A DNA stretch of 64,000 nucleotides, from positions 162,492-226,491 of the forward strand of contig CAVTGK010000040.1 in NCBI GenBank assembly GCA_963734095.1, in the 5' to 3' direction. Position 1 is the stretch's first letter, and every line of letters starts with the position of its first letter. This stretch comes from an uncultured Acidobacteriota bacterium (GTDB lineage: Bacteria; Acidobacteriota; Vicinamibacteria; Vicinamibacterales; UBA2999). The translations under genes and the position numbers were made by a program. The notes below the pieces were generated by a model. That model was not told where the DNA came from. It did no database searches and saw only the letters and a list, made by a program, of their open reading frames with translations. This document shows positions 371-63,285 of this stretch, in pieces.

Positions 371-410
371 CTAGGGCAGAGGGCATAGGGCGCAGGGCGC
401 AGGGAGAGGA
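371..410. repeat. GGGCRNA word array (single arm) downstream of kynU
   Basis: ctagggcagagggcatagggcgcagggcgcagggagagg. Same word family as 20727, 31296, 33801, 37884 and 63201. No complementary arm nearby. Confidence 0.6.
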
Positions 411-415
411 GCGAG

Positions 416-1647
416 CTAGCGAAACACAGACGCGAGGATGCCGCCGCCTTCGAGCAATTGCTGATCAGAAATGTAGGGCGCGGGACCGAGGCGCAGGATG
501 TCGCCCCTCGAGTCGGCATACAAGCCACGCGCGCGAAGACGCAGCACGAGGGCGCTGGCTTGCGGTGCGCGGATGGCGAGGAATCCTGCGCGGCGATCCG
601 ATTGAACCGGAATGAGCGCAGCGACCGCGGGATTGACGTCGAGCGCTTCGAAGCGCTTGATGAGCATCGCGACCTGGTGCTGGTTGACCGCGCGGAGTCG
701 CTCAGGCGTCATCCCCATGCGCTGATGAAACGCGAAGACGGCCGCCGCCCGATAGTGTGACGTCGGATCGTACGTCGCTCCGGCAAAGCGGGCCGCGCCC
801 TTGCCATAGCGAACCTCCCCCGCGTGTGCGGTATCGGCCAGTTCGGCGAACTCGCTGAACCAGCCGGTCAGGACCGGGCGCAGCTCCAATCCTGGAGGCA
901 CACGAAGAAAGCAGTTGCCCTCGCCGAGCTGACAGTACTTGTAGCCGCCGCCAACCACGAACGCCTCGGACAACCCCATCGCTTCGAGGTTGAAGGGGAC
1001 GACGTTCAAGTGATGGTAGGCGTCAACCAGCAGCACCGCGCCATGATGGGTGCAAGCATCGGCCACGAGCTTGAGGTCAGGGACGATCTCGGCTGACTCG
1101 AAGAGAACCGACGAGACCATGACGCAGGCCGTCGACGCGTCCACGGTCGCCGCCAGCCGTTCCGAGAGCGTTTCCGCCGGTTGCGCGGCAACCTTGATGA
1201 CGGGGACGCCTTCTTCCGCCAGGCGATCGAGCTGCCGGCGAATCGTGTGAAACTCGCCGTCGGTCGTGATCAGGCGGGTGAGTCGGGTGGGGCTCGTAGG
1301 GTGGCGGTCGCCGGTGGGCTGGGATAGCAAGTCGCAGTCCCGAACATCGGCAGAACGGCCGACAGCAATCGAACGACGAGTTCGTGCGTGTTCGCGCCCA
1401 ACGCGATGTCGCCGGACGGATCGTTCAGCAGCCGGCGCCATCCCGTACGGACCTCGTTGGCAACCGTCGCGGCCCGTTCCCACTTCTCGTCGACGAGCGC
1501 CGCCGCATCCAGCCATGCCTTCTGTTGCGCATCAAAGGCTACGTCGGGCCAGGCCTGATGCGAATGGCCGGTGAGGAGCAGTCGATTGGCGACGCGAAAC
1601 CGGGAATAGTGGCTCGCCAGGCCTACAGATGCGAACGGATTTCCCAT
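416..1647 (-). pseudogene. kynU: Kynureninase (class V aminotransferase fold), one frame disruption near 1290-1340
   Basis: N-terminal part is ORF 1270..1647 (..HSHQAWPD..GANTHELVVRLLS..). The rest is ORF 416..1516 (..LITTDGEFHT..GGGYKYCQLGEG..). The span is 1232 nt, not a multiple of 3. It overlaps kynA by 25 nt. Confidence 0.8.
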
Positions 1648-2411
1648 AAGTCCGGAAAGAGCGGTGAGCCGACCGTCGTACGCAGATAGGCGGCGCCGGA
1701 TGACCCGCCGGTTCCAAGCTTGACGCCAATCGTGCGCTCAACCATTTTCACGTGGCGATAGCGCCACTCTTGAACACCCTCGTCCAGATCAACCAGCCGC
1801 TCGCAGATCTCCGAGTTCTTCGGGTCGTTGCGATAGACCCGAATCAGGATCTGCTGCAGTTCTGCCGATGGCTCGATCTCCTGGGTCACGTCACGGGTCA
1901 GCAACCCGGCCGGCACCGGGTACTGCTCACGCGAGAGATAGGCGAGAAACGCATCCCACAACGTCGACTCGCGAAATCGTCGTTCAAGTGCCGCGCGCGC
2001 TCGGCTGCCGGCCGGAAAGCGCGCAATCGCTTGCGGCGCCTTGCGGCCAAGCGCAAACTCGAGCTGACGAAACTGGTCCGATTGAAACCCGCTGGCCGCC
2101 TCGAGCCGCTCGCGAAACGACAGAAACTCGAGCGGCGTCATGGTTTCGAGGATATCGAGCTGCGCGACCAGCACCTTGAGGATGGTCAGGACGCGTTTGA
2201 GCGTATGTTGCGCCCGATGAGAATCCCCCGCTTCGAGAAGATGATTGACACGATCGATCTCGTGGAGAATCTCCTTGAACCACAGCTCGTACACCTGGTG
2301 AATGACGATGAAGAGCAGCTCGTCGTGTTCGGGTCCGTCGGAGCGGGGCTGCTGGAGCTCGAGCAACTCGTCGACGTGGAGATAGCTGCTGTAGGTGACC
2401 GCCGGATCCAT
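1623..2411 (-). CDS. kynA: Tryptophan 2,3-dioxygenase
   Basis: 262 aa. YSSYLHVDELLELQQP..HDELLFIVIHQVYELWFK.. is the typical bacterial TDO N-terminus. Adjacent to kynureninase. Confidence 0.9.
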   Translation of the reverse strand: MDPAVTYSSYLHVDELLELQQPRSDGPEHDELLFIVIHQVYELWFKEILHEIDRVNHLLEAGDSHRAQHTLKRVLTILKVLVAQLDILETMTPLEFLSFRERLEAASGFQSDQFRQLEFALGRKAPQAIARFPAGSRARAALERRFRESTLWDAFLAYLSREQYPVPAGLLTRDVTQEIEPSAELQQILIRVYRNDPKNSEICERLVDLDEGVQEWRYRHVKMVERTIGVKLGTGGSSGAAYLRTTVGSPLFPDLWEIRSHL

Positions 2412-2514: not shown

Positions 2515-3762
2515 ATGCGCGAAGGACTGATGCAACAAACGGATTCGAAACAGTCCGAGAAAGACTACCTGCGTCGCTCCGCCGGCGGTGAATGGGAGGC
2601 GCTCAAGCCGTTCCCGCCGCCGGGCCAGCTCGCCAGCGAGGCGCACGCCCAGTACCTGCTCGACTTTGCCGTGATGTTGCGCGTTCTGACGCCGACGGCC
2701 TCGGATCTCGTGCTCGATCTGGGTGCGGGTTCGTGCTGGGTGTCCGATTGGTTGCGGCGCTGCGGCGTCCGGACGGTTGCCCTCGATATTTCCTGGGACA
2801 TGCTGCGGTTGGGCGCTTCGCGCCTCGACGGTGCACGCGGCCTGGTCACCGGCGACATGGAAGACCTGCCGTTCGCCGACCGCACGTTCTCAAAGGCGTG
2901 CTGTCTGAATGCCTTCCACCACATTCCCGACACAGCGCGCGCACTACGCGAGATCAAACGAGTCCTGACGCCCGACGGCGTGGTGCTGTTCTCGGAGCCT
3001 GGAGTCGGCCATGCCAACCACCCGACGTCTCTGGCGGCAACCCGCAACTACGGGGTGCTCGAAAACGAGATCCTGATCGACGAGTTCATGGATGCTTGCC
3101 TGGCCGCTGGCTTCGTCGATGTGCGACTCCATCCCATCGCACACATCATTCCGCTGTTCGAGATGCAGCAGCAACAGTGGCGGGATTGGCGCCGCTTCAC
3201 GGCGAGCCAGCGTCCGTTCCGGGCGCTCGACAAGATGTGGCGAGCGGCGCTGGAAGTGGTCGGGCTCGGCAAGAAGCAGCTGCTCTTCGAAGAAGCATTC
3301 GCCATTCGGCTGCTGCGCGAGATGCAGCCAGTCATCGAGCAGCATCCGGTGGTGACGGCGCACAGGACGTCTTTCGTCAAGCCCACCCTCCGCGCCGACG
3401 GCGCGCGGATAGAACTGCTGGACCCGCCATCGTCTGTCGCGGCAGGCCGTGAGGTCGTGCTGCGCGTCCGCCTGGCCAACGTCGGCAACACGCGGTGGGA
3501 GACGTCACCAGGGGGAGGACAGGTGCGACTGGGCGTGCAACTGCTGACGCCCGACGGCACGGTGGTCACTCGCGACTACTCACGCCACGACTTGCCGGCG
3601 CCAATCGATCCTGGCGGCCGCTGTGAGCTGAGGCTGCAGATTGCGCCGCCACCCGACATGGCAGGGTATCAGCTGAAGATCGATCTCGTGCGGGAAGGTG
3701 TGTCGTGGTTCGAGCTGGCGGGGTCGGAACCGGCGGTGTATCAGGTGCGACAGGTGCGATAG
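2515..3762 (+). CDS. Class I SAM-dependent methyltransferase with C-terminal Ig-like/NBR1-like domain
   Basis: VLDLGAGSCW (motif I) and DLPFADRTFSKACCLNAFHH (Methyltransf_11-like). The last codons (YQVRQVR*) are encoded by the first GGTGCGA words of the downstream repeat. Confidence 0.8.
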   Translation: MREGLMQQTDSKQSEKDYLRRSAGGEWEALKPFPPPGQLASEAHAQYLLDFAVMLRVLTPTASDLVLDLGAGSCWVSDWLRRCGVRTVALDISWDMLRLGASRLDGARGLVTGDMEDLPFADRTFSKACCLNAFHHIPDTARALREIKRVLTPDGVVLFSEPGVGHANHPTSLAATRNYGVLENEILIDEFMDACLAAGFVDVRLHPIAHIIPLFEMQQQQWRDWRRFTASQRPFRALDKMWRAALEVVGLGKKQLLFEEAFAIRLLREMQPVIEQHPVVTAHRTSFVKPTLRADGARIELLDPPSSVAAGREVVLRVRLANVGNTRWETSPGGGQVRLGVQLLTPDGTVVTRDYSRHDLPAPIDPGGRCELRLQIAPPPDMAGYQLKIDLVREGVSWFELAGSEPAVYQVRQVR

Positions 3763-3825
3763 GTGCTGGGGTGCGACGGGTGCGGTGCGGTGCACGGGTG
3801 CACGGGTGCACAGGTGCGGGTGCAC
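3742..3825. repeat. Degenerate tandem GGTGCR / GGGTGCAC words
   Basis: caggtgcgacaggtgcgataggtgctggggtgcgacgggtgcggtgcggtgcacgggtgcacgggtgcacaggtgcgggtgcac. Confidence 0.7.
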
Positions 3826-3830
3826 CGTGC

Positions 3831-3902
3831 AATCACTCAATCACCCAATGCAATCACCCAATCACCCAATCACCCAATCACCCAATCACCCAATCACCCA
3901 AT
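3831..3902. repeat. Tandem 8-bp repeat AATCACCC (6 perfect copies at 3852-3899 plus degenerate copies)
   Basis: Read directly. Only partly complementary (GGGTG core) to the 3742-3825 array. The + strand ORFs 3698..3987 (HPITQSPN...) are just translations of this repeat. Confidence 0.9.
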
Positions 3903-3940
3903 AAAAAAGACGGGAGGGGCCGGCGCAGCCCACTCCCGCC
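3903..3940 (-). terminator. Rho-independent terminator of TonB-dependent receptor copy 1
   Basis: The minus strand reads ggcgggagtgggctgcgccggcccctcccgtctttttt. A small hairpin GACTCC-N5-GGAGTC (3945-3962) lies just upstream. Confidence 0.75.
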
Positions 3941-3976: not shown

Positions 3977-6906
3977 CTAGAAAATAAACCGGAAGCCGAC
4001 GCGCGCGGTAAACGGCGCCAGAATCAACGTCGGCTTCAGGTAGCTCAAACCCGTCGCGCGGCCGATCGTTTCGGACGCGTGGCTGTTGGTGATGTTGAAG
4101 AGATCCAGGTACGCACGGATGCGAGTCCGACTGTTCAGCGTGATTGTCTTCTCCGTGCGCACGTCGAATACCCAGATGTTGTCTTCTCGATTGGCGTCAG
4201 CCGGCTCGGCATAGGCGGTCTGGCGATCGCCCGTGCCGCTGGTCGCAATCAGGTCGGGGCGCGAAACGGGATTGGCGGCGGCCGTCGTCGAAATGACCAC
4301 CGTGCGGGCAAAGTTGACACCCGACTGATGGCGCAGGACAGGAGAGAGCCGGATTCCCCACGGGGCCTCGTAGCTGCCTATTGCCTTGAGCCCCCACGTC
4401 GAGCGGTCCTGCACGCCAGGCATGTTCGGGTTGTTTGGGAACAGATCGTTCGGGAAGTTGGTGAGCATCGTGTAGCCGCCACCAACTTGCGCCGACCACT
4501 TGTTGGCGAAGCGCTTCGTGGTCGAGACCTCGATGGTCTTGTAGCGGCCATACCGCGGCACGTTCATGACAACCTGGTCGGCCGGGAAGAGGGTGTTGGC
4601 ATTTGCCGCCGGCAAACCCAACATCCTGATGATTTTATCGTCGGCGGTCCCAGCCCTGCCGTCGACACCAATATCGGTGAAGTCGAACGGCACCGTGAAC
4701 ACTTCCGGCCCGCGACCTGGCTGAAAGGTGTCGATCAGGTCGTCTTCGGTCTTGTAGACGAACCCGGCTCTCGCGCCCATAGAGTCATTCAGCTGGCGCT
4801 CGAACCAGACCGCTGCTTCGTGCGAGTACGGCGCCTTGATGTTCGGATCGACACGGATCGCGCCTTCGAGCGCGGCCGTGACAAACGTGGTCTCTTCGCC
4901 TGGCTGCCAGCGCTTGTCGCCCGCGATGCACCCGGCGCACGCTAGTTGGTCATTCCAGTTCCACGTGGAGGACTTACTGGCGATATTCGCGTTGCCGCTG
5001 GCTGGCACGCTGACGCCCGGGTTGTGCCAGTAGAGGCCGTAGTTGGCCTTCACGACCGTCCTCCCGTCGCCGCTCAGATCGTAGATGAAACCCACGCGCG
5101 GCGCGACCTGGTTCCACGTGAAGAGGTCCGTCTGCGGGAAGGTCTTGGCGTCCACCGATGCGCGGCCAACGGTCGCGCCGAGCTGCTGCTGCTCCGGCAA
5201 CCAGCCCTTGTAGTAGTCATAGCGGACGCCGCCATTGATCGTGACACGCCCGACCTGCCACGTGTCGTTGATGAAGAAGCCGATCTGATCGAGCGCCGCG
5301 CGGGACGTGAGGGCGCCGTTGTCGTTGTCCTTCAGGCTGCCGACGCTCGTTGCCGTGGGCAGACCGAAGATCACCTGCGTCGAGTTGCCGTTGTTGTAGA
5401 CCTGTTCGATATTGCTTGTGCCGCCGCGGCGCGAGAGGAAGCCTTCCCACGACTGCTCCTTCAGCAGCTCGCCGCCCATCTTGAACGTGTGGCTGCCCTT
5501 GGCGGTATCGAGAAAGTAGGTCGCGGCGCCCGTCCACTGCTTGCGGTCGCGATCGAGCTGCTGGCGCCTGATGCGCACCTTCAGAGATCAGCTGGCCCGT
5601 GTCGTGCCAGAAGAAGTTGTCAGGGCTGTTGGTGATGAGCGGGAAGTAGTACCCGAAGTCACCGTAGCGTGCTTCGAGATAAAGCTTGTCGGTGAGCGTC
5701 CCGTTCCATTCGGCCTTGTAGACCCAGCTGCCCGAGTCCTGCGCGAACGTCTGCTCGGGAGACAGGTAGCTGTAGGTCGCGAACGGCAGCCGATTCGGCT
5801 GTTCCTTCTGACCCCACTGGTAGTAGCCGATGATCTTGTGGTTCTGGTTCAGCTGATAGGTCCCCTTCACGACCGGGTTCCACAGCTTGGTGTCGAACGT
5901 CTTATCGAATTGGAAGTTCGGCTGCGCGACTGCATTGAATTGCTGCCGGAAAGTGCCGAAGTACCAGAGCTTGTCCCGCTTGATCGGTCCGCCGGCGTTG
6001 ATGTCGTGGTCGTAATAGCGCTCGATCTCGTTGCTGTGCGCCCGGATGGCATTGCTGCCATTGGTGCCGTTGAAGGCGGTCGGCGACGTGTAGTCGCTCG
6101 GGCAAGTTCGAGCCCTGCAGGGAGCTGTTGTACCAGTCGAGATGGTACTCGCCGAAGAACTGATTGGCGCCCGAGCGCGCGATGAACTGCGACTGCACGC
6201 CGGGGTTCGGCATCTCGGCCGACTGGCCCGATGTGCCGATAAACGCCTCCTCGAGCGACGCGTAATCGAAATAGAAACCGGCACCGCCTGTGCCTTCTGT
6301 CGTGTTGATACCTTCGATGAGCACACGTACCTGGCCGTTGAAGCCATAGGCGGTATAGCCGCTTTGCGTGCCGGCTCGGTTGCCGCCCACATCGACGCGA
6401 GCCATTGCCACCGATGGCGTGATCGCCAACAGGGCCCACATGTCGCGAGCGTTGGGAATCGACTGCAGTTGTTCGAGCTTGAAGTTCTGCTGAATACGAG
6501 TCGCGGACGTGTCGATGACGGGGGATTCACCCGTGACCGTGACCGTCTCTTGAAGTGTGGCGAGCACGAGCTCGATGTTGATGGTGGCCGTGAAGCCGAG
6601 TGTTATCAGAATGCCTTCCCGCTTCACACCGCTGAACCCGGCCAAGTCGTACGTCACGGTATAGGTGCCGGGCGGCACTGCCGGGAATCGATAGTTGCCG
6701 GTCTCGGAGCTGACCGTCGTCTGCGCTCCGAGCATCGACGGGCTGGTCGCAGTCACGGTCACGCCAGGGAGCACCGCGCCCTGCGCATCGGTGACGCGAC
6801 CTTGAATCGTGCCGGTGCTACTGGCACCACCGCCCTGCGCATAGGCAGGCGCGGCGACCGCGAGAGTCAGCGCGGCGATCAGCAATCCGCCAAGACAACG
6901 CTTCAT
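3977..6906 (-). pseudogene. TonB-dependent receptor with N-terminal CarboxypepD_reg domain, copy 1; two frame disruptions (about 6100 and about 5580)
   Basis: Three ORF pieces join colinearly into one receptor: 5902..6906 (signal peptide, GTIQGRVTDAQGAVLPGVTVTA), 5217..6530 and 3977..5578 (ends ..ARVGFRFIF*). The span is 2930 nt, not a multiple of 3. Confidence 0.85.
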
Positions 6907-7356: not shown

Positions 7357-7436
7357 GGGCGGGTGAGTCCGGTAAGGCGAGTGGGGGCTGGTTACTTCAC
7401 CACCCGCCCAACCCGACCGACCAGCCCGACCCGACC
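7357..7436. repeat. Word hairpin (GGGCGGGTG / GGTCGGGT family)
   Basis: gggcgggtgag...ttcaccacccgcccaacccgaccgaccagcccgacccgacc. Word family shared with 27614-27776. Confidence 0.6.
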
Positions 7437-7445
7437 GTGTAGGCG

Positions 7446-10351
7446 CTACCAGAGGAACCGGAACCCGAGCCTGGTGGTGAACGGTGCCAGGATGTTCGCG
7501 GGCCGCAGGAACGTCGTCCCGTCGTGTCGCGTGATCGTCTCCGACGCGTGACTGTTGGTGATGTTGAAGAAGTCGATGAACCCGCGAATCGCGCATGCGG
7601 CTCGTCAAGTTCAGCGTCTTCTCAGCGCGAACGTCGAAGACCCAGATGTTGTCCTCCGGCGGGCGCTGGCGCCTCGGCGTAGTACGTCGTTGCTGGAAGC
7701 GTCAGAGCCAAATGGCGTCGGCCGCGTTGCCCGGCACCGCTGATCTGACGCGCGAACTGGACGCCCGATTGATGACGCAGGAACGGGCGATAATCTAATG
7801 CCCCACGGGCCATGTCGTAGGTGCCGGTTGCCTTGAAGCCCCAACCGGTCGCGGTCATAGACGCCGGCCTGATTCGGGTTCTGCGGGTATCCTTCTGGGG
7901 GAAGTGCGTGGTCCACGTATAACCGAAGCCGATCTGACCGGACCAGCGGTTCCCGTAGCGCTTGGTCACCGACGCCTCGACGGTCTTGAAGCGTCCGTAC
8001 GCGTCATCCGGAGGTTCATCACGACCGAGTTGGTGGCGGGAACGAGTGCCGGCCTGCGCGATGTTGGGCATGCCGAGCAACGTCACCGTGCTGGTCGTCG
8101 CCCGTGCCTGTACGATGCCATCGGCACCGACATCGGTGAAGGGGAACGGCACGGAGTACGCGCTCAGCGGGCGACCGGGCTGATACGTGACACGGTGCGA
8201 CGAGAGCAGGTCGTCTTCGGTCTTGTAGATGAAGCCCAGTTCGCACCCGATCGGTGCCGCAATCTGGCGCTCGAGGAACAGACTCGACCTCGTGCGAGTA
8301 ACGGCTGCGTTGATATTGGGATCGAGGCTGACAGCGACCCCTCAAGACGAGGCGACGTCGGCGTGCGCGCCTTCCTCACCAGGTTGCCACTGCCTGTCGC
8401 CGTTGGCGTCGTTCCAGGAGTAGGTACCGCCTTGCCGTGCGTGTTCGAATTGGCGTAGGCTGGAGACGGCGACGCCAGGGTTGTGCCAGAAGAAGCCGTA
8501 GTTCGCCTTTGATCACGGTCTTGCCATCGCCGGTGAGATCGTAGACGACACCGAGGCGCGGGGCGAAGACGTTCCACGTGAAGAAGCTTTGTCTCAGCGA
8601 AAGTATCCGCGGGCACGAGACACCGGCCCGACCGTAGCCGCCGAGCTGTTCCTGCTCTGGCAGCCAGCCGTGGTAGCGATCGTAGCGAACGCCGCCGCTC
8701 ATGCGTGAACCGACCGACAGCCCACGTGTCGTTGACGAACAAGTCCATCGTGGTTGAGCGCTGCGCGTGAGGTCAGATTGCCCTCGTCGTTGTCTTTCAT
8801 GCCGCCCACGTTGCTTCGCTGTCGGGAGACCAAACACCACCGTGCTTGGCGAAGCCGTTCGCGTATTGGTGCTCGATGTTGCCGCCGAAGCGCTGCGTGA
8901 GAAGCCTTCCCACGACTGCTCACGTGAGCATTTCGCCCCGAACTTGAGCGTGTGGCTCCCCTTCGTCGGTGTCGAGGAACATCGTGGCGGCGCTGGTCAA
9001 CTGCTTGCGGTCGCGGTCGAGTTGCCATCGGCTGCTGCGCCCCGGTGAGGATCTGTAGGTCCGGTATCGCGCAGAACCAATACTGCGTGTCGGTATTGCG
9101 ATCAGCGGGAAGTAGTAGCCAAAATCGCCGTAGCGCGCCTCGAGATAGAGCTTGTCGCTGAGCGTGCCGTTCCACTCGGCCTTGTACACCCAACTACTCG
9201 ACTTCTGAGCGAGAGTCGGCCCAGCGTCAGGTAGCTGTACGTGGCAAAGGGCAGCCGGTTGGGTTGCTCCTTCGTGCCCCCATTGGTAGTAACCAATGAT
9301 CTTGTGGTTCTGGTTCAACTGGTAAGTGCCCTTGACGACGGGATTCCAGAGCTTGGTGTCGAACGTCTGTTCGAAATCGAACTGCGGCTGCGCCACGGCA
9401 TTGAACTGCGTGCCGGATAGGTTCCGAACCACCACAGCTTGTCGGCCTTGATCGGACCACCGGCGTTGATCGCCGTGTCGTAGTAGCGATCGATCTCATT
9501 GCTGGCCCTTACGGTATGCGCCCGTCGTTGATGCACATCGTCGCGGAATGTTCGAAGCCTGCAGGGCGTTGTTGTACCAGTCAAGGTAGTACTCGCCGTT
9601 GAACTGATTACCGCCTGACTTGGTGATGAACTGGCTCTGCACACCAGGATTCGGCATCTCGGCCGACTGGCCGAGCGTGCCGAGAAACACTTCTTCGACC
9701 GAGGAGTAGTCGAAATAGAAGCCGGCGGCGCCGGTGCCTTCAGTCGTGTTGATGCCTTCGATGAGCACACGCACCTGGCCGGTAAAGCCATACGCCGTGT
9801 AGGGGGTCTGCGTCCCAGCGCGGTTGCCGCCGACATCGATACGCCTCATCGCCACGCCGGGGGACACCGCGAGGAGCGACCACATGTCGCGGCCGTTCGG
9901 GATCGACTGCAGCTGGTCGAGCTTGAAGTTTGCTGAACGACGCGGTCGCCGATGTGTCGATGACTGGCGATTCGCCGGTCACCGTGACGGTTTCCTGCAA
10001 CGTCGCGAGCGCGAGCTCGACGTTGATGTTCGCGGTGAAGCCGAGAGAAATGATGATGCCCTCACGCCTCACCGCGTTGAATCCGGTCAGCTCATACGTG
10101 AGCGTGTAGGTGCCGGGAGGGACTGCCGGGAACCGGTAGTTTCCGGTCTCGGAAGTGACCGTGGTCTGCGCGCCGAGCATCGCCGGACTCGTCGCGGTGA
10201 TGGTCACGCCGGGCAGCACCGCGCCCTGCGCATCGATGACCCGACCCTGAATCGTGCCGGTGCTGCTGGCACCACCGCCCTGCGCGTACGCAGGCGCGGC
10301 TATCGCGAGACTGAGCACGGCGATCAGCAAACTGCCTAAGCAACGCTTCAT
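7446..10351 (-). pseudogene. TonB-dependent receptor, copy 2 (tandem paralog); at least 8 frame disruptions
   Basis: N-terminus (9740..10351) is about 85% identical to copy 1. The remaining homology is scattered over ORFs 9496..9885, 9315..9836, 8920..9435, 9102..9296, 8699..9193, 8376..8840, 8164..8748 and 7622..8152. The C-terminal ..RLGFRFLW* stop is at 7446. Confidence 0.85.
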
Positions 10352-10610: not shown

Positions 10611-10699
10611 CAACGGAACGGGACGTAATTTAACCGAACGTTCAAACTGGCGAAAAGGTCGGGAACGGCCACGGCCGAGGGTTTTACGGCCCACGGTCC

Positions 10700-10806
10700 T
10701 CGGCCGGTGGCCGGCGGCCGGGTAGTTTCCAGTTGCCAGTTACCAGTTCAAAGGGACTGGCCAACTGACAACTGACCGGAGGCCGGAGCCCTGCTGCCGG
10801 CCACCG
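10700..10806. repeat. Word hairpin (CCAGTT / AACTGG words, outer GGCCGG stem) downstream of eamA
   Basis: cggccggtggccggcggccgggtagtttccagttgccagttaccagttc-aaaggg-actggccaactgacaactgaccgg...gccggccaccg. Confidence 0.8.
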
Positions 10807-10820
10807 ACTCGTCCCTGTGT

Positions 10821-11726: not shown

Positions 11727-11781
11727 CGCGTGGGTCGAGATGGTCTGATGGCGCGGGTCTGGCTCGGTAGGTTTGATAACA

Positions 11782-11871
11782 GTGACCAGTTCGACCGCAA
11801 CCTCGACTCTTTGAACTGGTCACTGGCAACTGGAAACTAGCCGGCCGCTGGCTACCGGCCACTGGCCACCG
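11782..11871. repeat. Word hairpin (CCAGTT family) upstream of eamA
   Basis: gtgaccagttc-N20-gaactggtcac, then actggcaactggaaactagccggccgc... Positions 11813-11848 are the reverse complement of 10714-10749 with 2 mismatches in 36. Confidence 0.8.
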
Positions 11872-11878
11872 GCGTGAG

Positions 11879-12223
11879 CTAGCCGCCGAAGGGCTTGATG
11901 AAGAAGAGAATCAGCGTCACGAGCAGCACATAGATGACGAGGGATTCGATCAGCACCAGACCCAGAATCAGAACGCCGCGGATGTCGCCGACTGCCCCGG
12001 GATTGCGCGCAATCGCCTCGGCGGCCGAGCCGATGGCGCGGCCCTGCCCGATGGCTCCGCCGGCCGCGGCGATGGCCAGGGCGAACCCAGCGGTGATGAT
12101 TGACCACTGTACCAGACCGCTGTTCGCGGCATCAGCGGCCGCCTCCTGGGCAAACACGGGCGAGGCCACGCCCAGGACCAGGAACGCCAACATCACAGAC
12201 AGCAGGGAGCGTCGAGTGCTCAC
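11879..12223 (-). CDS. atpE: F-type ATP synthase subunit c with signal-peptide-like N-terminal extension
   Basis: Hairpin of two TM helices with loop ARNPGA and carboxylate helix ILGLVLIESLVIY. N-terminus is MSTRRSLLSVMLAFLVLGVASPVFAQE. Confidence 0.85.
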   Translation of the reverse strand: MSTRRSLLSVMLAFLVLGVASPVFAQEAAADAANSGLVQWSIITAGFALAIAAAGGAIGQGRAIGSAAEAIARNPGAVGDIRGVLILGLVLIESLVIYVLLVTLILFFIKPFGG

Positions 12224-14850: not shown

Positions 14851-14852
14851 GC

Positions 14853-14970
14853 GGAGTTACAAGTTACAAGTTCACAAGTTACAAACCGCTGGGCCGATCC
14901 ACTCGCGCTCCAGGAGCAGCTCTGACCGAAAACTTGGCAACTCAACTTTGAACTTGTAACTTGTAACTTC
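14853..14970. repeat. Word hairpin H1 (GTTACAA words)
   Basis: ggagttacaagttacaagttcacaagttacaaacc-loop-aacttggcaactcaactttgaacttgtaacttgtaacttc. Ends 4 nt before the next start codon. Confidence 0.85.
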
Positions 14971-14974
14971 ACGA

Positions 14975-17096: not shown

Positions 17097-17102
17097 CGGG
17101 AC

Positions 17103-17170
17103 AGTTACAAGTTACAAGTTCAAAGTTGAGTTTGGGAGTTTGTAACTTGGAACTTGTAACTTGTAACTTC
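17103..17170. repeat. Word hairpin H2 (GTTACAA words), inverted copy of H1
   Basis: Positions 17103-17132 are the perfect reverse complement of 14939-14968 (30 nt). Ends 5 nt before the hemC ATG. Confidence 0.85.
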
Positions 17171-17175
17171 CGCCA

Positions 17176-19766: not shown

Positions 19767-20743
19767 AGCTCGAGCGACGGTTTCGACGCTTGCGCCGCAC
19801 GCCGGCGCTGCGTCGCCTGGTCCGCGAAACACGGTTGTCGGCGGATCAGTTCGTTTTGCCTCTTTTTGTCTGCGAAGGCGGCGGCGTTCGTCGTGAGGTG
19901 TCGTCGATGCCCGGCGTGTATCAATTGTCGGTGGACGAGGCCGTCACTGAGGCTGCTGCTGCGCGGAGTGACGGCGTCCCCGCGGTCTTGCTCTTCGGGC
20001 TGCCGAATGAGAAGGACGACGAGGGATCCGCGGCAGAGGATCCGGCCGGCCCCGTTCAACAAACCGTCCGGAGAATCCGCGATTCAGTCGCCGACATGGT
20101 CGTCATCACCGACGTCTGCCTTTGCGAGTACACGTCTCACGGGCATTGCGGAATCGTGGCTGATGGAGAGATCGTGAACGATGCCACGGTCGACCGACTC
20201 GTGCGCGCGGCGATCTCCCATGCCCGAGCCGGGGCCCATGTCGTCGCCCCGTCCGACATGATGGACGGACGTGTCGGGGCCATCCGGTCGGCGCTCGACG
20301 AGGCCGGATTCGACCAGGTCGCGATCATGAGCTACGCGGCAAAGTACTGCTCCGGGTTCTACGGACCGTTTCGTGAGGCGGCCGATTCGGCCCCGCAGTT
20401 CGGCGATCGCCGGAGCCACCAGATGGATACGGCCAACGTCGAAGAAGCGCTGCGGGAGGTGGCACAAGACATCGATGAGGGCGCTGATATCGTGATGGTC
20501 AAGCCGGCAATGCCGTACCTCGACGTGATTTGGCGCGTCCGCGAGCGATTCGGATATCCAACCGCAGCCTATCAGGTGAGCGGCGAGTACTCGATGATCA
20601 AAGCCGCCGCCCGCAACGGTTGGATCGATGAAGAGCGCGCGATGCTGGAGTCACTGACGGCCATTCATCGTGCGGGCGCGGAGATCATCATCACGTACTT
20701 TGCGCGCGAAGCGGCTCGGTGTGGTAAGAGGGCTAGGGCATAG
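19763..20743 (+). CDS. hemB: Porphobilinogen synthase (delta-aminolevulinate dehydratase)
   Basis: 326 aa. ..[27 protein letters not shown].. Confidence 0.9.
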
Positions 20744-22129: not shown

Positions 22130-22132
22130 CTA

Positions 22133-22298: not shown

Positions 22299-22305
22299 AA
22301 AACAC

Positions 22306-26769: not shown

Positions 26770-26771
26770 TG

Positions 26772-29007: not shown

Positions 29008-29031
29008 GGCTCCGTCCTTTCTCTTCAGTCA

Positions 29032-42852: not shown

Positions 42853-42936
42853 AAGGTGCCTACGGTGCCTCGGTGCCTGGGGTGCCTAAGGTGCTGGTGC
42901 AAGAAGTGCGTTCGGTGCCTAAGGTGTATGAAGTGC
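42853..42936. repeat. GGTGCCT word array: left arm of a split hairpin
   Basis: aaggtgcctacggtgcctcggtgcctggggtgcctaaggtgctggtgcaagaagtgcgttcggtgcctaaggtgtatgaagtgc. About 70% reverse-complementary to 44375-44467. Confidence 0.8.
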
Positions 42937-43330: not shown

Positions 43331-44251
43331 ATGCACGGGGGCCCGGCAGGCATCCACTCTCGGGTAACGAGGCGGCTCGCTGTGCGGATTCTGCTGACCG
43401 TGCTGATTGTAAGCGGAACAGCCCATCCTCGACCCGTCTGGCCCTTCGCATGGGCGGCGCAGGATCGTGCGGATGCTACCAACGGTGTCGTCGAGGTTGA
43501 GGGCGGTCGCATCTACTACGAGGTGACTGGGCAAGGACCAGCGCTGGTTCTCATCCACGACGGCATCCTCCACCGCGAAACGTGGGATGAGCAGTTCGCC
43601 GAATTCGGCCGTTCGTTCCGGACCGTCCGCTGGGATCGTCGCGGCTACGGAAAGTCGCCCGCTCCTCAGGCGCCGTTCTCACATATCGATGACCTGCTCC
43701 TGGTCATGAAAGCGCTGAAGATCGAGCGCGCCGCTCTGATCGGCTGCTCGGCTGGAGGCATGCTGGCGCTACATTTCGCGCTCGATCATCCCGCGATGGT
43801 GAGCGCGTTGGTGCTCGTCGGCCCGATTGTCAGTGGCCTGCCATTCTCCGATCACTTCGTGACTCGTGGCGGGCGGAAGATTCCTCCCCCCGGCAGTCCT
43901 GCCGAAGATAGGATCGATTACTGGACGTCGAAGGATCCCTGGATTACCGCTCCGACCAGCGATGGCGCGAAGCGTAAGATGCGCTCACTCATGGAGGCGA
44001 ATCCGGCGAACGGCGCGGGCGGGCAACACGCACGCTGGTCCGAGCCAGTCCTGGGCCGGTTATCGCAGATCAAGGTTCCGACCCTCTTGATCGCCGGCGA
44101 GTCGGACATTCCCGACGTGCATAGCAGTATGGGTGCGATTCAGGCTGGCGTCCCGGCCGTCACGCGCGTCGTGTTGGCGCATGCGGGCCATTTGCCGCAT
44201 CTTGAAGTGCCACAAGCCTTCAACGCAGAAGTGTTGAAGTTCCTTCGGTAA
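43331..44251 (+). CDS. Alpha/beta-fold hydrolase
   Basis: 306 aa. ..LVLIHDG..LIGCSAGGMLAL..LLIAGESD..AHAGHLPHLE.. Confidence 0.8.
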   Translation: MHGGPAGIHSRVTRRLAVRILLTVLIVSGTAHPRPVWPFAWAAQDRADATNGVVEVEGGRIYYEVTGQGPALVLIHDGILHRETWDEQFAEFGRSFRTVRWDRRGYGKSPAPQAPFSHIDDLLLVMKALKIERAALIGCSAGGMLALHFALDHPAMVSALVLVGPIVSGLPFSDHFVTRGGRKIPPPGSPAEDRIDYWTSKDPWITAPTSDGAKRKMRSLMEANPANGAGGQHARWSEPVLGRLSQIKVPTLLIAGESDIPDVHSSMGAIQAGVPAVTRVVLAHAGHLPHLEVPQAFNAEVLKFLR

Positions 44252-44374: not shown

Positions 44375-44467
44375 GCACTGTTACACGCACTTAGGCACTT
44401 CTGGCACCTTTCGCACTTTAGGCACCAGCACGCCAGGCACCTTCGGCACCCAGGCACGCCAGGCACT
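44375..44467. repeat. AGGCACC word array: right arm of the split hairpin
   Basis: gcactgttacacgcacttaggcacttctggcacctttcgcactttaggcaccagcacgccaggcaccttcggcacccaggcacgccaggcac. Confidence 0.8.
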
Positions 44468-44478
44468 CTTACCCCTTT

Positions 44479-46239: not shown

Positions 46240-46249
46240 TCTTGGATTC

Positions 46250-46376
46250 TAGTTCGGAGTTCGGAGTACGGGAGTTCGGCGTTGGTTCGACGTTCGGAGT
46301 TCGGAGTTCGGGTTCGGGGTACGGGGTTCTGAGTTCTGTTCTGAGTTCTGTTGCTGAGTGCGGAGTTCTTGGCGCG
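46250..46376. repeat. GTTCGGA / GTTCTGA word array: left arm around the four-helix-bundle gene
   Basis: gttcggagttcggagtacgggagttcggcgttggttcgacgttcggagttcggagttcgggttcggggtacggggttctgagttctgttctgagttctgttgctgagtgcggagttc. Confidence 0.8.
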
Positions 46377-46396
46377 GGAGTTGCCTTCATGTCCGC

Positions 46397-46765
46397 ATGC
46401 CCTGGCGACAATTCACGGAAATCGAGGCTTGGAAGCTCTGTATGAGATTGAGCCAGGAATTCGAGGCAATTCTTGACAGGCCGCCGGCCTCCCAAGATCG
46501 CAAGTTCTGCGAGGAGGCTCGTGATGCCGCCCTCTCGTCGCCGCGAAACATCGCTGAGGGCTTTGGCCGGTTCGGCAATCGAGAGTTCGCCAACTTCGTC
46601 AGCATCGCCCGAGCGAGCCTGATGGAGACACAGACGAATCTGCTCTTCGCGCGCGATGCCAGATTCCTATCAGCGCCGGAATTCAAAAGCCTGTGGGACC
46701 TTTCGGAGGAAGCTCTCTCAACAACCACCGGATTGCTCAAACATCTTCGCAGACGTCGGCCCTGA
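46397..46765 (+). CDS. Four-helix-bundle protein (23S rRNA intervening-sequence protein family)
   Basis: MPWRQFTEIEAWKLCMRL..RNIAEGFGRF..REFANFVSIARASLMETQT.L..A is the characteristic pattern of this family. The start at 46397 was chosen inside ORF 46358..46765. Confidence 0.8.
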   Translation: MPWRQFTEIEAWKLCMRLSQEFEAILDRPPASQDRKFCEEARDAALSSPRNIAEGFGRFGNREFANFVSIARASLMETQTNLLFARDARFLSAPEFKSLWDLSEEALSTTTGLLKHLRRRRP

Positions 46766-46782
46766 CGACGGAATAGGCGGCC

Positions 46783-46941
46783 AGAACTCAGCACGCCGCA
46801 GGCCGTATGCCGCAGGCCGAACGCCGCACGCGGCACGCCGAACGCCGAACGCCGAACAGAACTCAGAACCTCCGAACTCGGAACAAGAGCTCAGAACTCT
46901 GAACACTGCACCAACTCCGAACCCCGCACCCCGAACTCCGC
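46783..46941. repeat. TCAGAAC / TCCGAAC / GCCGAAC word array: right arm around the four-helix-bundle gene
   Basis: cagaactcagcacgccgcaggccg...gccgaacgccgaacgccgaacagaactcagaacctccgaactcggaac...ccgaaccccgcaccccgaactccgcag. Reverse-complement words of 46250-46376. Confidence 0.8.
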
Positions 46942-46961
46942 AGTTGGCTATACTCAACAAA

Positions 46962-49702: not shown

Positions 49703-49719
49703 TCGGCTCCCGAATCCAC

Positions 49720-49863
49720 CACGAAGATCACGAACGGGATCTTCCGGCTAAAGCCGGAAGCCACGCGGAATTCATTCTCCTGTGGAGAGTTCATCCTCCT
49801 GTGGGAGTTCATCCTCCTGTGGCTTCCGCCTTCAGGCGGAAGATCCCGTTCGTGATCTTCGTG
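49720..49863. repeat. Composite palindrome: perfect 27-bp inverted repeat enclosing two 8-bp hairpins and three tandem 18-19-nt units
   Basis: cacgaagatcacgaacgggatcttccg (49720-49746) is the exact reverse complement of 49837-49863. Inner tandem is ttcatYctcctgtggRag x3 (49771-49823). Confidence 0.9.
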
Positions 49864-49878
49864 TCGGCTGAACTTCCT

Positions 49879-50457
49879 CTACTTCGCGGTAATCATGAAA
49901 TGACCGCGACGATTCTGTTGCCAGCAGCCTTCGGATTGCTCAGAGCAGAATGGCGATTCCTTCCCTCTCGTGACCACGGCAATCCGATCCGCGGGGACGC
50001 CAAGGCTGATGAGGTAGGCCTTGACAGCGTTTGCGCGGCGATCGCCCAGCGCGAGGTTGTACTCGCCCGATCCGCGTTCGTCGCAGTGGCCCTGGATCGT
50101 GAACCGGACCGACGACCATCGCTTCAGCCACTCGGCGTTCTTTTGAAGCAGCGGCCGGGCGTCGTTGCGCACGCTGGACTCGTCAAGATCGAAGAACACG
50201 TCACCGAGGTGCCCCTCTTTGTTGAGCTGATCGATGGTCTTCTTCGCGAAGATCTCATCGTCTGACAAAGTGGTTGGCGCTGGTGCGGCGGGAGGCGGCG
50301 GTGCCGGGGGGGGCGGCGTCGGGGGGGGCGCAGGCGCGGTCGGCGGAGGAGGCGCTGGCGGTTCTGGCGCAGGCTTCTTACCGCAACCCGCTGCACCGAT
50401 GGCGAAGACGACACAGAGCGTGACTGGCCCTGCCAGGCGTTGAAACACGGTCATCAA
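49879..50457 (-). CDS. pal: Peptidoglycan-associated lipoprotein (OmpA-family C-terminal domain)
   Basis: Lipobox ..AIGAAGC, a Pro/Ala-rich linker, then ..FDLDESSVR..QGHCDERGSGEYNLALGDRRA.. Confidence 0.85.
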   Translation of the reverse strand: MMTVFQRLAGPVTLCVVFAIGAAGCGKKPAPEPPAPPPPTAPAPPPTPPPPAPPPPAAPAPTTLSDDEIFAKKTIDQLNKEGHLGDVFFDLDESSVRNDARPLLQKNAEWLKRWSSVRFTIQGHCDERGSGEYNLALGDRRANAVKAYLISLGVPADRIAVVTRGKESPFCSEQSEGCWQQNRRGHFMITAK

Positions 50458-53823: not shown

Positions 53824-54037
53824 TCTCGCCGTCGTCGTCGAATTCGTCCTCGTCGTCGTCCTCTTCGTCTTCATCCTCGTCCTCGTCCTCGTCATCGGCA
53901 AGTTCGAGTTCGAGAGGCGCATCACTGAAGACCCTGAGTAGCGCACCACATTCCGAGCAGGCCAACTCGTCGCCGACATCGACGTCCAGTTCGTCGATGT
54001 CGATTACGGAGTCACACTCGGGACAATTGGCAGCCAT
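53801..54037 (-). CDS. LysW-like zinc-ribbon protein with long poly-acidic tail
   Basis: 78 aa. MAANCPECDSVIDI..GDELACSECGALLRV..PLELELADDEDEDEDEDEEDDDEDEFDDDGENEEDLDE*. AGGAG lies 8 nt upstream of the ATG. Confidence 0.65.
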   Translation of the reverse strand: MAANCPECDSVIDIDELDVDVGDELACSECGALLRVFSDAPLELELADDEDEDEDEDEEDDDEDEFDDDGENEEDLDE

Positions 54038-57568: not shown

Positions 57569-57662
57569 CCGGTCCACGTCCACGGTCCACGGTGCCAGGC
57601 GCGGTCCAGGCCCACGGCCCGGCCCCGGCCATGGACGGCTACCGGACCGGACCGGTCCGACG
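57569..57662. repeat. Word hairpin (GGTCCAC / GGACCGG words)
   Basis: ccggtccacgtccacggtccacggtgccaggcgcggtccaggcccacggcc-cggccccggcc-atggacggctaccggaccggaccggtccgacg. Confidence 0.75.
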
Positions 57663-61821: not shown

Positions 61822-61824
61822 CTC

Positions 61825-63231
61825 ATGGGCAGGCTGACCTCGATGATCGCGCTGGTCCTCGTCCTGGCCGGGCTCGGCGCGTACATCTATTTCGTCGACT
61901 CGAAACGGCCAGCAACGAGCGTCGCAGAGAAGGCCAAGGTTTTCACGGTCGAGGCGGACAAGGTCGAGGAAGTCACCATCACCTCGGACAGCGAAACCAG
62001 CACCCTTCGGAAGGTGGACGGCACTTGGCGGATGACCGCGCCCGTTCAGGCGGACGTGGACCAGAGCGAGATCTCCAGCGTGACGAATGCGCTCTCGACG
62101 GTGGAGGTCAATCGTGTCGTCGAAGAGAACGCGAGCAGCCTGGCCGACTACGGGCTTGCCACGCCGCGGATCACGGTGGCGTACAAGGCTGCCGGCGGCA
62201 GCGAAGGCCAGCTCCTGATCGGAGACAAGTCGCCGACGCAGAGCGATGTCTACGCGATGAAGCCGGGCGAGAAGCGGGTGTTCCTGGTCGCTGGCTTCAA
62301 CGAATCGACGTTCGCCAAAAAACCGTTCGACCTGCGAGACAAACGGATCCTCGACTTCGAACGCGACAAAATCGATTCGGTGGAAGTCGTACGCGACGCC
62401 AACACCGTCCTGCTGGCGCGTAGCGGCAGCGAGTGGGTCGTCAAGCAACCGATTCAGGCGCGCGGTGACTACAGCGCGATCGAAGCCCTGATCACAAAAC
62501 TCGCCAGCGGCAGGATGACCCGCCTGGTGGAAGGCGCGGGGTCGACACCGAAGGACGCTGCAGGTCTCGCCAAATACGGGCTCGCCAAGCCGGTCGCGCG
62601 TATCTCGCTCGGAACCGGCAGCGCGCGAGCGACGCTGGCGCTCGGCAAAGAGGAAGAAGGCGCCGTGTACGCTCAGGATCAGGGACGCGGCTTGATCTTC
62701 ACCGTTGACCCAACGTTCATGTCGGATCTCAAGAGCGCGGCCGGCGACTATCGCGACAAGGAAATGTTCGAGACGCGCGGGTTCAACGCTGCCCAGGTGC
62801 GAGTCGTGCGCGGCGCCGAAACGCTCGAGTTCCGAAAGAGCGCCGGCACTGGCGAGAACGCCGGGGAGACGTGGCAGCGCGTGGTGGACGGCAAGCCCGC
62901 CGACGTCGACATGGCCAAGATGGAAGACTTCTTGTCGAGACTGACGGCGTTGCGAGCGCAGTCGTTCGTGGCCGTCTCGCCGAGTACAGGCCTCGCGACG
63001 CCCAGTCTGGTGGTGTCGAGCAGTTACGACAACGGAAAGTTCGAGCGGGTCCGGATCGCGAAGAACGCCGAAGTGTTTGGCGCACGCGACGGCGAACCGG
63101 GGGTGGCCAAGCTGGACACCGCTGCGTACGACGAAGCCATCAAGGCGCTCGAGGCGGTACTCGCGCCACCGGCTCCACCGGCACCGGCACCATCGCCAAG
63201 CCCTAAGGGCCCCGACAGTCCTAAGCCCTAG
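61825..63231 (+). CDS. DUF4340-domain protein (usual partner of GldG-like proteins)
   Basis: 468 aa. N-terminal TM anchor, repeated beta-rich modules and a Pro/Ala-rich tail. Position after the GldG-like gene is typical. Confidence 0.65.
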   Translation: MGRLTSMIALVLVLAGLGAYIYFVDSKRPATSVAEKAKVFTVEADKVEEVTITSDSETSTLRKVDGTWRMTAPVQADVDQSEISSVTNALSTVEVNRVVEENASSLADYGLATPRITVAYKAAGGSEGQLLIGDKSPTQSDVYAMKPGEKRVFLVAGFNESTFAKKPFDLRDKRILDFERDKIDSVEVVRDANTVLLARSGSEWVVKQPIQARGDYSAIEALITKLASGRMTRLVEGAGSTPKDAAGLAKYGLAKPVARISLGTGSARATLALGKEEEGAVYAQDQGRGLIFTVDPTFMSDLKSAAGDYRDKEMFETRGFNAAQVRVVRGAETLEFRKSAGTGENAGETWQRVVDGKPADVDMAKMEDFLSRLTALRAQSFVAVSPSTGLATPSLVVSSSYDNGKFERVRIAKNAEVFGARDGEPGVAKLDTAAYDEAIKALEAVLAPPAPPAPAPSPSPKGPDSPKP

Positions 63232-63285
63232 GCCCTTGGCCTTGGGCCCTAGATCCCTGTGCCCCGTGCCCTGCGCCCTGCGCCC
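63201..63285. repeat. GCCC-type word array with a small palindrome (cctaggccc-ttggcctt-gggccctag)
   Basis: Covers the DUF4340 stop and the proposed GTG start and signal peptide of the next gene. Confidence 0.7.

Follow-up and report, generated by a model that had tools for sequence, protein, structure and literature searches.

We examined a 64,000-nucleotide stretch (the window) of a Vicinamibacterales (Acidobacteriota) metagenome-assembled genome, in which many intergenic gaps hold hairpins whose arms are arrays of short tandem words, and in which one pair of such arms encloses a gene of family PF05635. The window is ordinary housekeeping chromosome. Pfam identifies a cytochrome c assembly-family gene followed by hemA, hemC, cobA/hemD, hemB and hemL, together with uppS-cdsA-dxr-rseP, pyrR-pyrB-pyrC, pyrK-pyrD, ATP synthase genes, a P-type ATPase and TonB-type outer-membrane proteins. 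Pfam scans of about 50 window open reading frames (ORFs) found no transposase, integrase, reverse transcriptase or RAYT (the tyrosine transposase associated with repetitive extragenic palindromes, REP). A tRNA scan of the window returned zero tRNAs, and Rfam gave no family at the gathering threshold and no rRNA.

Periodic hairpins in the intergenic gaps

A sequence-only reading of this DNA had described more than 20 palindromic hairpins with arms of tandem words. We folded 17 of the sites it listed, and a further one at 49720, with RNAfold, and expressed each energy as a z-score relative to 100 dinucleotide shuffles on both strands. Thirteen of the 18 folded sites (10700, 11782, 14853, 17103, 20727, 22133, 26772, 27614, 29032, 31296, 33801, 37884 and 49720) are strongly self-complementary, with z from -3.1 to -13.4 across both strands, compared with -2.3 to +1.4 for 20 coding controls. 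The claim of arms more complementary than shuffled sequence is thus borne out at these sites, while five others (371, 3742/3831, 7357, 57569 and 63201) are one-sided or weakly paired locally in the fold test, and two of the listed "pairs", 42853/44375 and 46250/46783, are arms 1.5 kb and 0.4 kb apart that each stand around a gene. A 160-nt sliding scan of minimum free energy over the entire window was uninformative because GC-rich coding DNA yields equally low energies, and per-site z-scores were used instead; a generic local-alignment scan for inverted repeats overlooked imperfect hairpins with indels and was kept only for controls and polarity. The strongly folding sites are the following, with z given for the two strands.

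10695-10812: compound hairpin without an ORF in a co-directional (-,-) gap, with GGCCGGY words on the outside and CCAGTTN words on the inside; z -4.9/-6.2
11775-11880: ORF-less CCAGTT-family hairpin, asymmetric, with a short left arm and a right arm that runs on as a GGCCRGY array; z -4.2/-3.4
14851-14974: ORF-less GTTACAA hairpin filling the gap between a VWA-domain gene and the cytochrome c assembly-family gene (PF01578); z -7.8/-5.2; arms 20 nt, 100% complementary
17097-17175: ORF-less GTTACAA hairpin in the hemA/hemC gap of the hem operon; z -5.8/-7.0; arms 25 nt, 96% complementary
20722-20835: ORF-less GGGCRYA hairpin in the hemB/hemL gap, left arm overlapping the hemB 3' end and right arm touching the hemL ATG; z -4.3/-3.6
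22128-22302: ORF-less hairpin in a convergent gap, each 13-nt unit joining GGTTCT to about 7 variable nt; z -13.4/-8.6; arms 69 nt
26765-26825: short hairpin, GGGTGAKT/AATCACC, in the cdsA/uppS gap, right arm entering the uppS 3' end; z -5.8/-5.5; kept in relatives L001 and L002
27608-27780: ORF-less hairpin, words GGTCGGGT/GGTSNGG; z -5.9/-6.3
29028-29120: ORF-less GGTTCCN hairpin in a divergent gap; z -5.0/-3.1; Tandem Repeats Finder (TRF) arrays 29034-29066 and 29091-29115
31289-31386: ORF-less GGGCRCA hairpin; z -7.6/-6.8
33800-33968: ORF-less GGGCRNA hairpin, left arm overlapping the 3' end of a TolC-like gene; z -4.1/-5.8; arms 55 nt
37826-38010: in a divergent gap, a one-sided GGGTGATT array (37826-37880) and, after it, a GGGCRCA hairpin (37886-38002); z -8.3/-9.1 for 37880-38010
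49715-49868: hairpin absent from the earlier list, in a convergent gap, with CACGAAG/CACGAAC words in 45-nt arms, 93% complementary; z -12.7/-12.7; its loop holds three tandem copies of the 18-mer GGAGTTCATCCTCCTGTG

An inverted-repeat finder returned arm pairs that include 22134/22230, 33820/33911, 17103/17144, 14855/14949 and 37886/37970. The arms are periodic arrays of 20-70 nt, built of contiguous 5- to 14-mers, with about a dozen words in 64 kb. For the window, TRF listed short-period arrays in 113 rows; merging leaves 37 arrays, of which 18 have period 7. Period 7 likewise accounts for 59 of 167 arrays when the relatives' loci are included.

That nearly every gap holds a hairpin, as had been claimed, proved too strong: arrays occur in 20 of the 36 gaps of at least 40 nt and are lacking in 16, and folding of the gaps by themselves gave z of -3.5 or lower in 10. 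About 20 array-bearing sites could be classified by the orientation of the flanking genes as co-directional (11, several within operons), convergent (5) or divergent (4). Operon-internal hairpins include those of the hemA|hemC, hemB|hemL and cdsA|uppS gaps. Hairpins start at most a few nucleotides from stop codons and finish at start codons, and several start codons have no room for a Shine-Dalgarno sequence owing to the abutting elements. Array units also extend into annotated gene ends (20727-20743 in hemB, 33801-33811 in the TolC-like gene, 26798-26825 in uppS and 37826-37862 in a BamB-like gene), and since these units lie inside annotated 3' or 5' ends, the elements appear to change protein termini.

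A hemA-based search with one genome per species assigns the window to Vicinamibacterales: in HemA, L001 and L002 are 98% identical to the window, L003 is 90% identical, and others stand at 77%, 69% and about 60%. Matching elements are found in independent assemblies (L001-L004 and L102-L105), and comparable ones in MEGAHIT-style (k141) contigs (L008, L011 and L012). The hairpins are therefore not an assembly artefact, a concern that had been raised with the original description, because they recur in independent assemblies that include short-read ones.

PF05635 genes, inverted arrays and turnover among relatives

PF05635 is the "23S rRNA intervening sequence protein" family (S23p; also "S23 ribosomal protein" and "four helix bundle protein"), whose members are Avd-like four-helix bundles. 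The two split arm pairs of the window, one of which has a PF05635 gene in its loop, comprise the following parts.

46245-46396: 5' arm of the ORF-bearing element, with GAGTTCG, GAGTTCT and GAGTGCG heptamer arrays (TRF 46251-46369)
46397-46765, plus strand: PF05635 gene in the element loop, Pfam E 9e-20
46766-46945: matching 3' arm of that element, made of reverse-complement heptamers and additional GCACGCC units
42855-42894: 5' arm of the other split pair, GGTGCCT words
44387-44471: 3' arm of the same split pair, AGGCACC words (TRF and arm alignment)

The arms of the ORF-bearing element pair over 95 nt with an alignment score of 87, against a shuffle maximum of 27, and those of the GGTGCCT pair are complementary with a score of 45 against a shuffle maximum of 22. 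The 46397-46765 gene has the top inverted-repeat flank score among 59 window genes. The closest Protein Data Bank entry to its product is 2GSC (X. campestris XCC0516; E 6e-9). The ORF is intact in L103-L105, and it differs from that of L104 by 12 synonymous and 9 non-synonymous codons, too few for a ratio of the two rates.

The gap upstream of pyrK holds the ORF-bearing element in the window, L103, L104 and L105; in L102 it holds a GGTGCCT hairpin that is about 240 nt long and has no ORF. The replacement in L102 lies at identical flanking bases (...AAAGCGCAC / ...GCGCAC, element, GCTATACTCA...) within flanks that are about 97% identical. No target duplication is visible at these swapped boundaries, and a clean empty site is lacking among the compared genomes. 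In the more distant L115 and L116, a PF05635 gene 60-71% identical to that of the window sits in the neighbouring gap with GAGTGCG/GNGTGCT arrays on its flanks. That neighbouring gap in the window is the one with GGTGCCT arms, here around an alpha/beta-hydrolase gene (43331-44251), and the arms are conserved in L102-L105. In L105 (3976-6012) the GGTGCCT "loop" adds a DNA-alkylation-repair gene and about 1 kb of other DNA, and element loops appear to be hot spots of gene gain and loss. At the gap of the window's PF05635 element, L115 (5380-6210) carries a long GGAGTGC array, one-sided, and after it an IS256-family (Transposase_mut) insertion. In the P0020 contigs, from another relative, the PF05635 gene lies beside pyrK on the strand opposite to the window arrangement, which may have come about either because the loop flipped between the two arms or through a separate insertion. 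Searched with a profile in all six frames, the window and L001-L021 yielded no further PF05635 gene, and no remnant of one, in hairpin loops.

Inverted arrays also flank PF05635 genes well outside this group. The family is very large; one search gave more than 7,700 relatives, and we fetched 80 metagenomic PF05635 loci (28-51% identity, GC content 0.28-0.69), 55 of them with both flanks. An inverted-repeat flank score of at least 30 was found for 37 of these 55 genes (67%) and for 3 of 156 displaced controls (2%). The arms are periodic in 35 of the 37 flanked loci, with period 7 or 14 in 22, period 8 in five and period 9-10 in five, and the 5' arm has more G than C in 33 and more C than G in two. 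Arm words vary by locus (GGGATCGTTC, ACGGGTGCTA, AGTGACTG, GGAGTCT, GGTTCCA, GAGTTCG and others); 5' arms are enriched in GTTC, GAGT and GGTT, the reverse complements of which are nearly missing from them. This enrichment is only moderate, and a core motif common to all words was not found. Array density is 3.15 per kb within 300 nt of PF05635 genes and 0.38 per kb beyond (about 8-fold), and 73 of the 136 arrays near these genes have period 7. None of 40 loci has an rRNA location, and no Rfam family covers the arms in these 40; the only Rfam match among them is the Acido-Lenti-1 RNA (RF01687, 42.5 bits) at L055 1658-1705, about 0.8 kb from the PF05635 element.

Two of these loci place ORF-less hairpins next to an ORF-bearing element. 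In L086 the PF05635 arms read (AGTGACTG)n...AGCAA, and an ORF-less hairpin 1.6 kb off on each side uses this word, either unchanged or with one base altered; in L096, likewise, the ORF-less hairpins have the word found in the arms of the PF05635 element next to them.

In Xanthomonas, X. campestris among others (L110-L114, 1424-1873), the XCC0516 homologue lies between accB and accC, which make up the conserved biotin-carboxylase operon, and is preceded by GGGAATC GGGAGTG GAGAATC GGGAATC and followed by the mirrored reverse complement, which reaches the accC ATG. The accB|accC site is occupied in the loci of two Xanthomonas proteins, P0080 (X. campestris) and P0070 (multispecies; on 383 contigs). 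A protein-level search of plasmids matched mainly Nostoc, Calothrix, Anabaena and Riemerella. Inverted heptamer arrays surround the PF05635 gene in three of the four plasmid cases examined, with the words CAGGAGT in Nostoc punctiforme pNPUN02, GGGTGTA in Calothrix brevissima and GGTTYAA in Riemerella; the fourth, the gamma plasmid of Nostoc PCC 7120, has arrays on both sides that are mutually non-complementary.

The hairpins of the window share their architecture with the arms of PF05635 elements: both are periodic, most commonly with period 7, and have a G-rich 5' arm (in the hairpins, 387 G:C pairs with G in the 5' arm, against 259 C:G). ORF-less and ORF-bearing versions replace each other and share words.

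Comparison of sites and relatives indicates that words are copied between places. The sequence-only reading had taken the words to be locus-specific. The ordered string TTTCCAGTTGCCAGTKACCAGTTCAAAG recurs at three places, namely the left arm at 10724, the right arm at 11782 (as its reverse complement) and a hairpin in the L003 gap orthologous to 14851. GTTACAA, GGGCRCA, GGGTGATT and GGTGCCT each occur at several sites and in several genomes: within the window GGGCRCA is found at six sites, GGGTGATT at three and GTTACAA again at 17103, and GGTGCCT, at 42855/44387 here, has two further sites in the genome of L002. The words are therefore not locus-specific, and identical ordered strings, whole-element replacement and nested insertion lend no support to their independent origin and indicate copying between sites.

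Replacement is seen at several orthologous gaps. At 14851 the window has GTTACAA and L003 has CCAGTT, with complementary arms and with an apical motif AGTTCAAAG...CTTTGAACT common to both, and here the earlier statement that structure is kept while sequence changes holds. In the hemA|hemC gap the 67-nt GTTACAA hairpin of the window is identical in L001, is replaced by GGTGCC(T) hairpins of about 200 nt in L002 and about 230 nt in L003, and is absent from L018 and L004, in which the gap itself is missing. At the 11782 gap, the place of the CCAGTT-family hairpin is taken in L002 and L003 by one of GGTCGGGT type. At the 20744 gap, the GGGCRYA hairpin of L001 has a second hairpin nested in its loop, with CACGAAG words similar to those at 49715-49868, and L003 is without a periodic hairpin; the 20744 and 23182 gaps both show presence/absence variation in L003. 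Compound arms, with an outer and an inner word, occur at 10700, 37826-38002 and 46245-46945. At these orthologous gaps we saw only replaced segments without clean junctions.

Unit number changes in both arms among close relatives, in agreement with the suggestion that slippage makes the arrays: the GTTACAA hairpin of the 14851 gap, whose copy number varies in L001 and L002, has 3, 4 and 4 copies in the left arm and 2, 4 and 3 in the right arm in three genomes that are 95-97% identical. The 46245-46945 arms also gain and lose units between genomes, with a different number of 3' arm units in L104 and L105. The 22128-22302 element is the conserved example; it is kept in L001-L003, down to about 80% identity. 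Its GGTTCT core does not vary, and 2 of its 50 consensus pairs show compensatory change in the few sequences compared. Across Vicinamibacterales loci array density runs from 0 to 7.5 per 10 kb, with L005, L013 and L014 among those from hairpin-poor relatives, and because of this range, and because presence, word and size vary at orthologous gaps, the hairpins are dispensable for the host operons.

Known repeat systems and explanations

The hairpins are a multi-word variant of a repeat type reported in Xanthomonas. X. campestris and X. axonopodis have about 185 GGGAATC heptamer arrays, with 70-75 convergent inverted pairs of stem-loop potential, which the authors read as G-quadruplex formers; the PF05635/S23p gene goes unmentioned (Rehm et al. 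2015, PMC4692102). Like the window elements, these pairs are intergenic, consist of tandem units of about 7 nt, run from a G-rich array to its complement and have a species-dependent copy number, and the PF05635 gene (the XCC0516 homologue) is flanked by the genome's own GGGAATC word; unlike the window, with its dozen or so words, Xanthomonas uses essentially one word genome-wide. The observations of the sequence-only reading largely hold, and its interpretation holds in part; it overlooked the Xanthomonas inverted pairs as a precedent (PMC4692102), as well as the PF05635 gene inside one element.

Intervening sequences (IVSs) of 23S rRNA offer a second likeness. In the Coxiella IVS an S23p ORF lies in the loop of a terminal-inverted-repeat stem, variable tandem heptamers lie upstream of the ORF, and RNase III cuts the stem (PMC4990558). 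The IVSs of Leptospira and Coxiella thus resemble the 46245-46945 element in having a PF05635 ORF in a loop between terminal inverted repeats, with heptamers by the ORF in Coxiella; alike too are the position of the element at the tip of a pre-existing helix and the existence of an ORF-less version, which the window also has. The window elements differ in lying outside rRNA, where IVSs occupy helix 9, 25 or 45 of the 23S molecule, and in arms that are far longer arrays.

In layout the elements recall the REP/REPIN-RAYT system (REPINs being REP doublets), with many short ORF-less intergenic palindromic doublets, rarer gene-flanking inverted copies, operon-internal elements and, in Xanthomonas, a gene-flanking copy at a conserved site (accB|accC). 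They differ from it in having no REP consensus and internally periodic arms, and the window-type gene encodes a four-helix bundle of 110-160 aa, not a Y1 (IS200/IS605-like) transposase. We rejected assignment to REP/REPIN itself, as no 20-40 nt consensus is shared and no Y1 transposase is found among the window ORFs; to CRISPR arrays, as the units are contiguous 5- to 14-mers without spacers, not 24-48-nt direct repeats; and to integron attC sites, given the absence of an integrase from the window, the failure of GTTACAA-like words to fit GTTRRRY and the housekeeping operons as neighbours. Exclusion of these three classes agrees with the earlier reading. As for miniature inverted-repeat transposable elements, arms are present and no duplication is visible; the window has no transposase, and the ORF-bearing copies encode PF05635 only.

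Intergenic tandem heptamers with several words per genome are likewise known from cyanobacteria, where short tandemly repeated repetitive (STRR) sequences were reportedly described by Mazel et al. in 1990, and from Beggiatoa; these repeats differ from the window elements in being described chiefly as direct arrays. The Nostoc and Calothrix plasmid PF05635 genes, between inverted heptamer arrays, supply a further likeness on the cyanobacterial side. Eukaryotic foldback (FB) elements have long terminal inverted repeats of short tandem sub-repeats, a variable centre that sometimes holds genes, and many non-coding copies. Homology with them is not implied: they are eukaryotic, with much longer arms and autonomous copies that encode a transposase. 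Among the TAACTGA repeats of the Guaymas 'Maribeggiatoa', one set in 170 is inverted (PMC4679880). The literature that we covered, which is incomplete, so that an earlier description is possible, contained nothing linking PF05635 to heptamer arrays, and the link over four phyla appears to be new.

We consider that the hairpins are probably ORF-less members of a foldback family whose full members carry a PF05635 gene in the loop, as at 46245-46945. The shared architecture and words, the exchange at the pyrK gap and the flanks of PF05635 genes in other phyla all point this way, and we infer that the hairpins without an ORF derive from PF05635 elements or are partners to them, much as REPINs relate to RAYTs. 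Such an element would have arms made of tandem units about 7 nt long, the G/T-rich form of the word being in the 5' arm. Unit slippage, evident in the copy numbers, would change arm length; the mirrored change seen between arms may arise from templated arm-to-arm copying, from selection or from both. The patterns of shared strings, exchanged elements and nested loops suggest that the elements are mobile, being copied to other intergenic sites, replacing resident elements and inserting into existing hairpin loops. They would be transcribed within operon mRNAs and fold as stems of about 20-70 bp, which would most likely serve as host-tolerated RNase III processing sites, because rRNA IVSs of similar architecture are cut by RNase III. 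RNase III sites, one of the candidate roles in the sequence-only reading, fit the likeness to IVSs. One idea for the strand preference is that a C-rich arm leaving the polymerase first would recruit Rho, hence the G/T-rich arm comes first. Their positions within essential operons (hem, acc, pyr) and directly next to start codons make it probable that they influence how mRNAs are processed and translated in the lineages concerned.

Several observations weigh against this interpretation. About one third of PF05635 genes have no detectable inverted-repeat flanks; the G-rich 5' arm bias is weaker in ORF-less Vicinamibacterales hairpins, at 16 vs 5 (some of them orthologous); and neither a target-site duplication nor a clean empty site was seen at orthologous gaps. 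About 470 kb of Vicinamibacterales sequence contains one PF05635 gene and dozens of hairpins, and no other window hairpin carries the element's word GAGTTCG, so the link in this genome rests on common architecture, on position and on the replacement seen in L102. Among co-directional gaps, four fold better on the sense strand and five on the antisense strand, which gives no sense advantage. The Pfam scans found no transposase, RAYT or reverse transcriptase that could be set beside the elements in the window, and we know of no catalytic activity for PF05635 proteins.

More tentatively, PF05635 proteins may be a dedicated partner of heptamer-array foldback elements across bacteria, comparable to RAYT and REPIN in the coexistence of ORF-bearing copies with many ORF-less hairpins. 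The ring-shaped pentamer might bind the periodic G/U- or G/T-rich arm, with about one unit per subunit, and promote its maintenance, copying or processing. If true, this proposal would unite rRNA IVSs, the Xanthomonas GGGAATC "G4" (G-quadruplex) repeats, the multi-word Acidobacteriota hairpins and possibly the cyanobacterial heptamer repeats.

Alternatively, the hairpins could be a mutational by-product of slippage and intrastrand template switching (quasi-palindrome correction), a neutral and immobile filler in which PF05635 genes land or survive. Unit copy-number variation, the many one-sided arrays, very fast turnover with hairpins missing from relatives' orthologous gaps, and the even folding of sense and antisense strands are all as such a process would leave them. 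We nevertheless find it unlikely, in view of the recurrence of the same ordered word variants at separate loci and, in another genome, at a different gap, the exchange of entire elements at identical boundaries, the consistently G/T-rich 5' arm, the inverted flanks of 67% of PF05635 genes against 2% of controls over four phyla, and the ORF-less copies that adjoin ORF-bearing ones with the same word.

Quite unlikely, in our judgement, is a functional RNA kept by selection (bidirectional terminators, 3'-end stabilisers, or intercistronic processing or translation control) whose sequence drifts while the stem stays. Elements do span from near stop codons to start codons, 22128-22302 is conserved with its 50 consensus pairs to relatives about 80% identical, and five convergent gaps bear arrays, among which the strong folders 22133 and 49720 reach z of -8.6 or lower on both strands. 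Against this, that conserved example has compensatory change in only 2 of its 50 pairs, folding does not favour the sense strand, divergent gaps hold four of the sites and conserved operons contain several, and the orthologous gaps of L018, L004 and L003 work hairpin-free. These results support neither the selection on structure proposed earlier nor, among the candidate roles then listed, termination as the main function. Intrinsic terminators were rejected as a class, since a U-tract follows none of the 13 hairpins, with at most five T in the next 12 nt on either strand and never in a run, and canonical terminators of a stem and T6 stand elsewhere in the window, separate from the hairpins, at 68-91 (+) and 3940-3903 (-). 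The hairpins are thus unlikely to be dedicated terminators.

It is very improbable that the elements are G-quadruplex or i-motif repeats acting on DNA or RNA, as has been proposed for GGGGAYT in Nostoc and GGGAATC in Xanthomonas, for, although GGGCRCA and GGGTGATT arrays fit the pattern G3-N4/5 with at least four tracts and Xanthomonas-type heptamers form quadruplexes in vitro (PMC4692102), most words do not fit, there being no G-run in GTTACAA, CCAGTT, GGTTCTT, GGTTCC, GGTGCCT, GTTCGGA or CACGAAG nor in many PF05635 arms (AGTGACTG, GGAGTCT, CGTTCTA), and the G-rich arm is base-paired to its complement in the hairpin form.

The association of PF05635 with inverted arrays spans Acidobacteriota, Pseudomonadota, Cyanobacteriota and Bacteroidota. 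Bacterial tandem heptamer repeats have been reported several times without a mechanism, and we know of no function for PF05635 beyond that of Avd, the accessory protein of diversity-generating retroelements; the link gives both a testable context. Xanthomonas is a tractable model, with a solved structure (2GSC) and about 185 catalogued repeat sites. A large-scale CRISPR screen counts "23S rRNA IVP" among CRISPR-associated proteins (PMC10910872), and flanking arrays may explain this listing.

Other features of the window

The sites that are one-sided or pair weakly are the following, with z for the two strands.

373-409: one-sided GGGCRNA array directly downstream of a minus-strand gene; z -0.4/-0.2
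3742-3902: adjacent arrays of GGTGCR and then CAATCACC, with partial pairing; z -1.2/-3.1; the canonical terminator of a minus-strand gene comes next, at 3903-3940
7357-7437: weak, mainly one-sided array, GGTNGGG / ACCCG; z -0.7/-2.0
57569-57660: short arrays of GGTCCAC and ACCGG, no significant hairpin; z -0.1/-2.3
63220-63286: one-sided C-rich arrays of CCTAGGC and CCCTGCG, beginning inside the 3' end of a plus-strand gene that ends at 63231; z -2.1/-1.6

Two minus-strand TonB-type outer-membrane genes (CarboxypepD_reg and OMP beta-barrel; 3977-6906 and 7611-10351) are each broken over several frames, and are either pseudogenes or products of indel errors in a long-read assembly; if such errors split them, small indels elsewhere in the window call for caution. 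Triplet-based repeats, unrelated to the intergenic heptamer arrays, lie in coding DNA at 53825-53897 and 50282-50360. They are (TCGTCC)n, whose minus strand would encode an acidic run, and a GCG-type repeat rich in GC. Rfam gave no match to positions 1-450 even at E<=1. Within 61-300, about 200 nt of strongly structured sequence (z -4.2) come after the canonical intrinsic terminator at 68-91 and could be an unclassified small RNA or leader.

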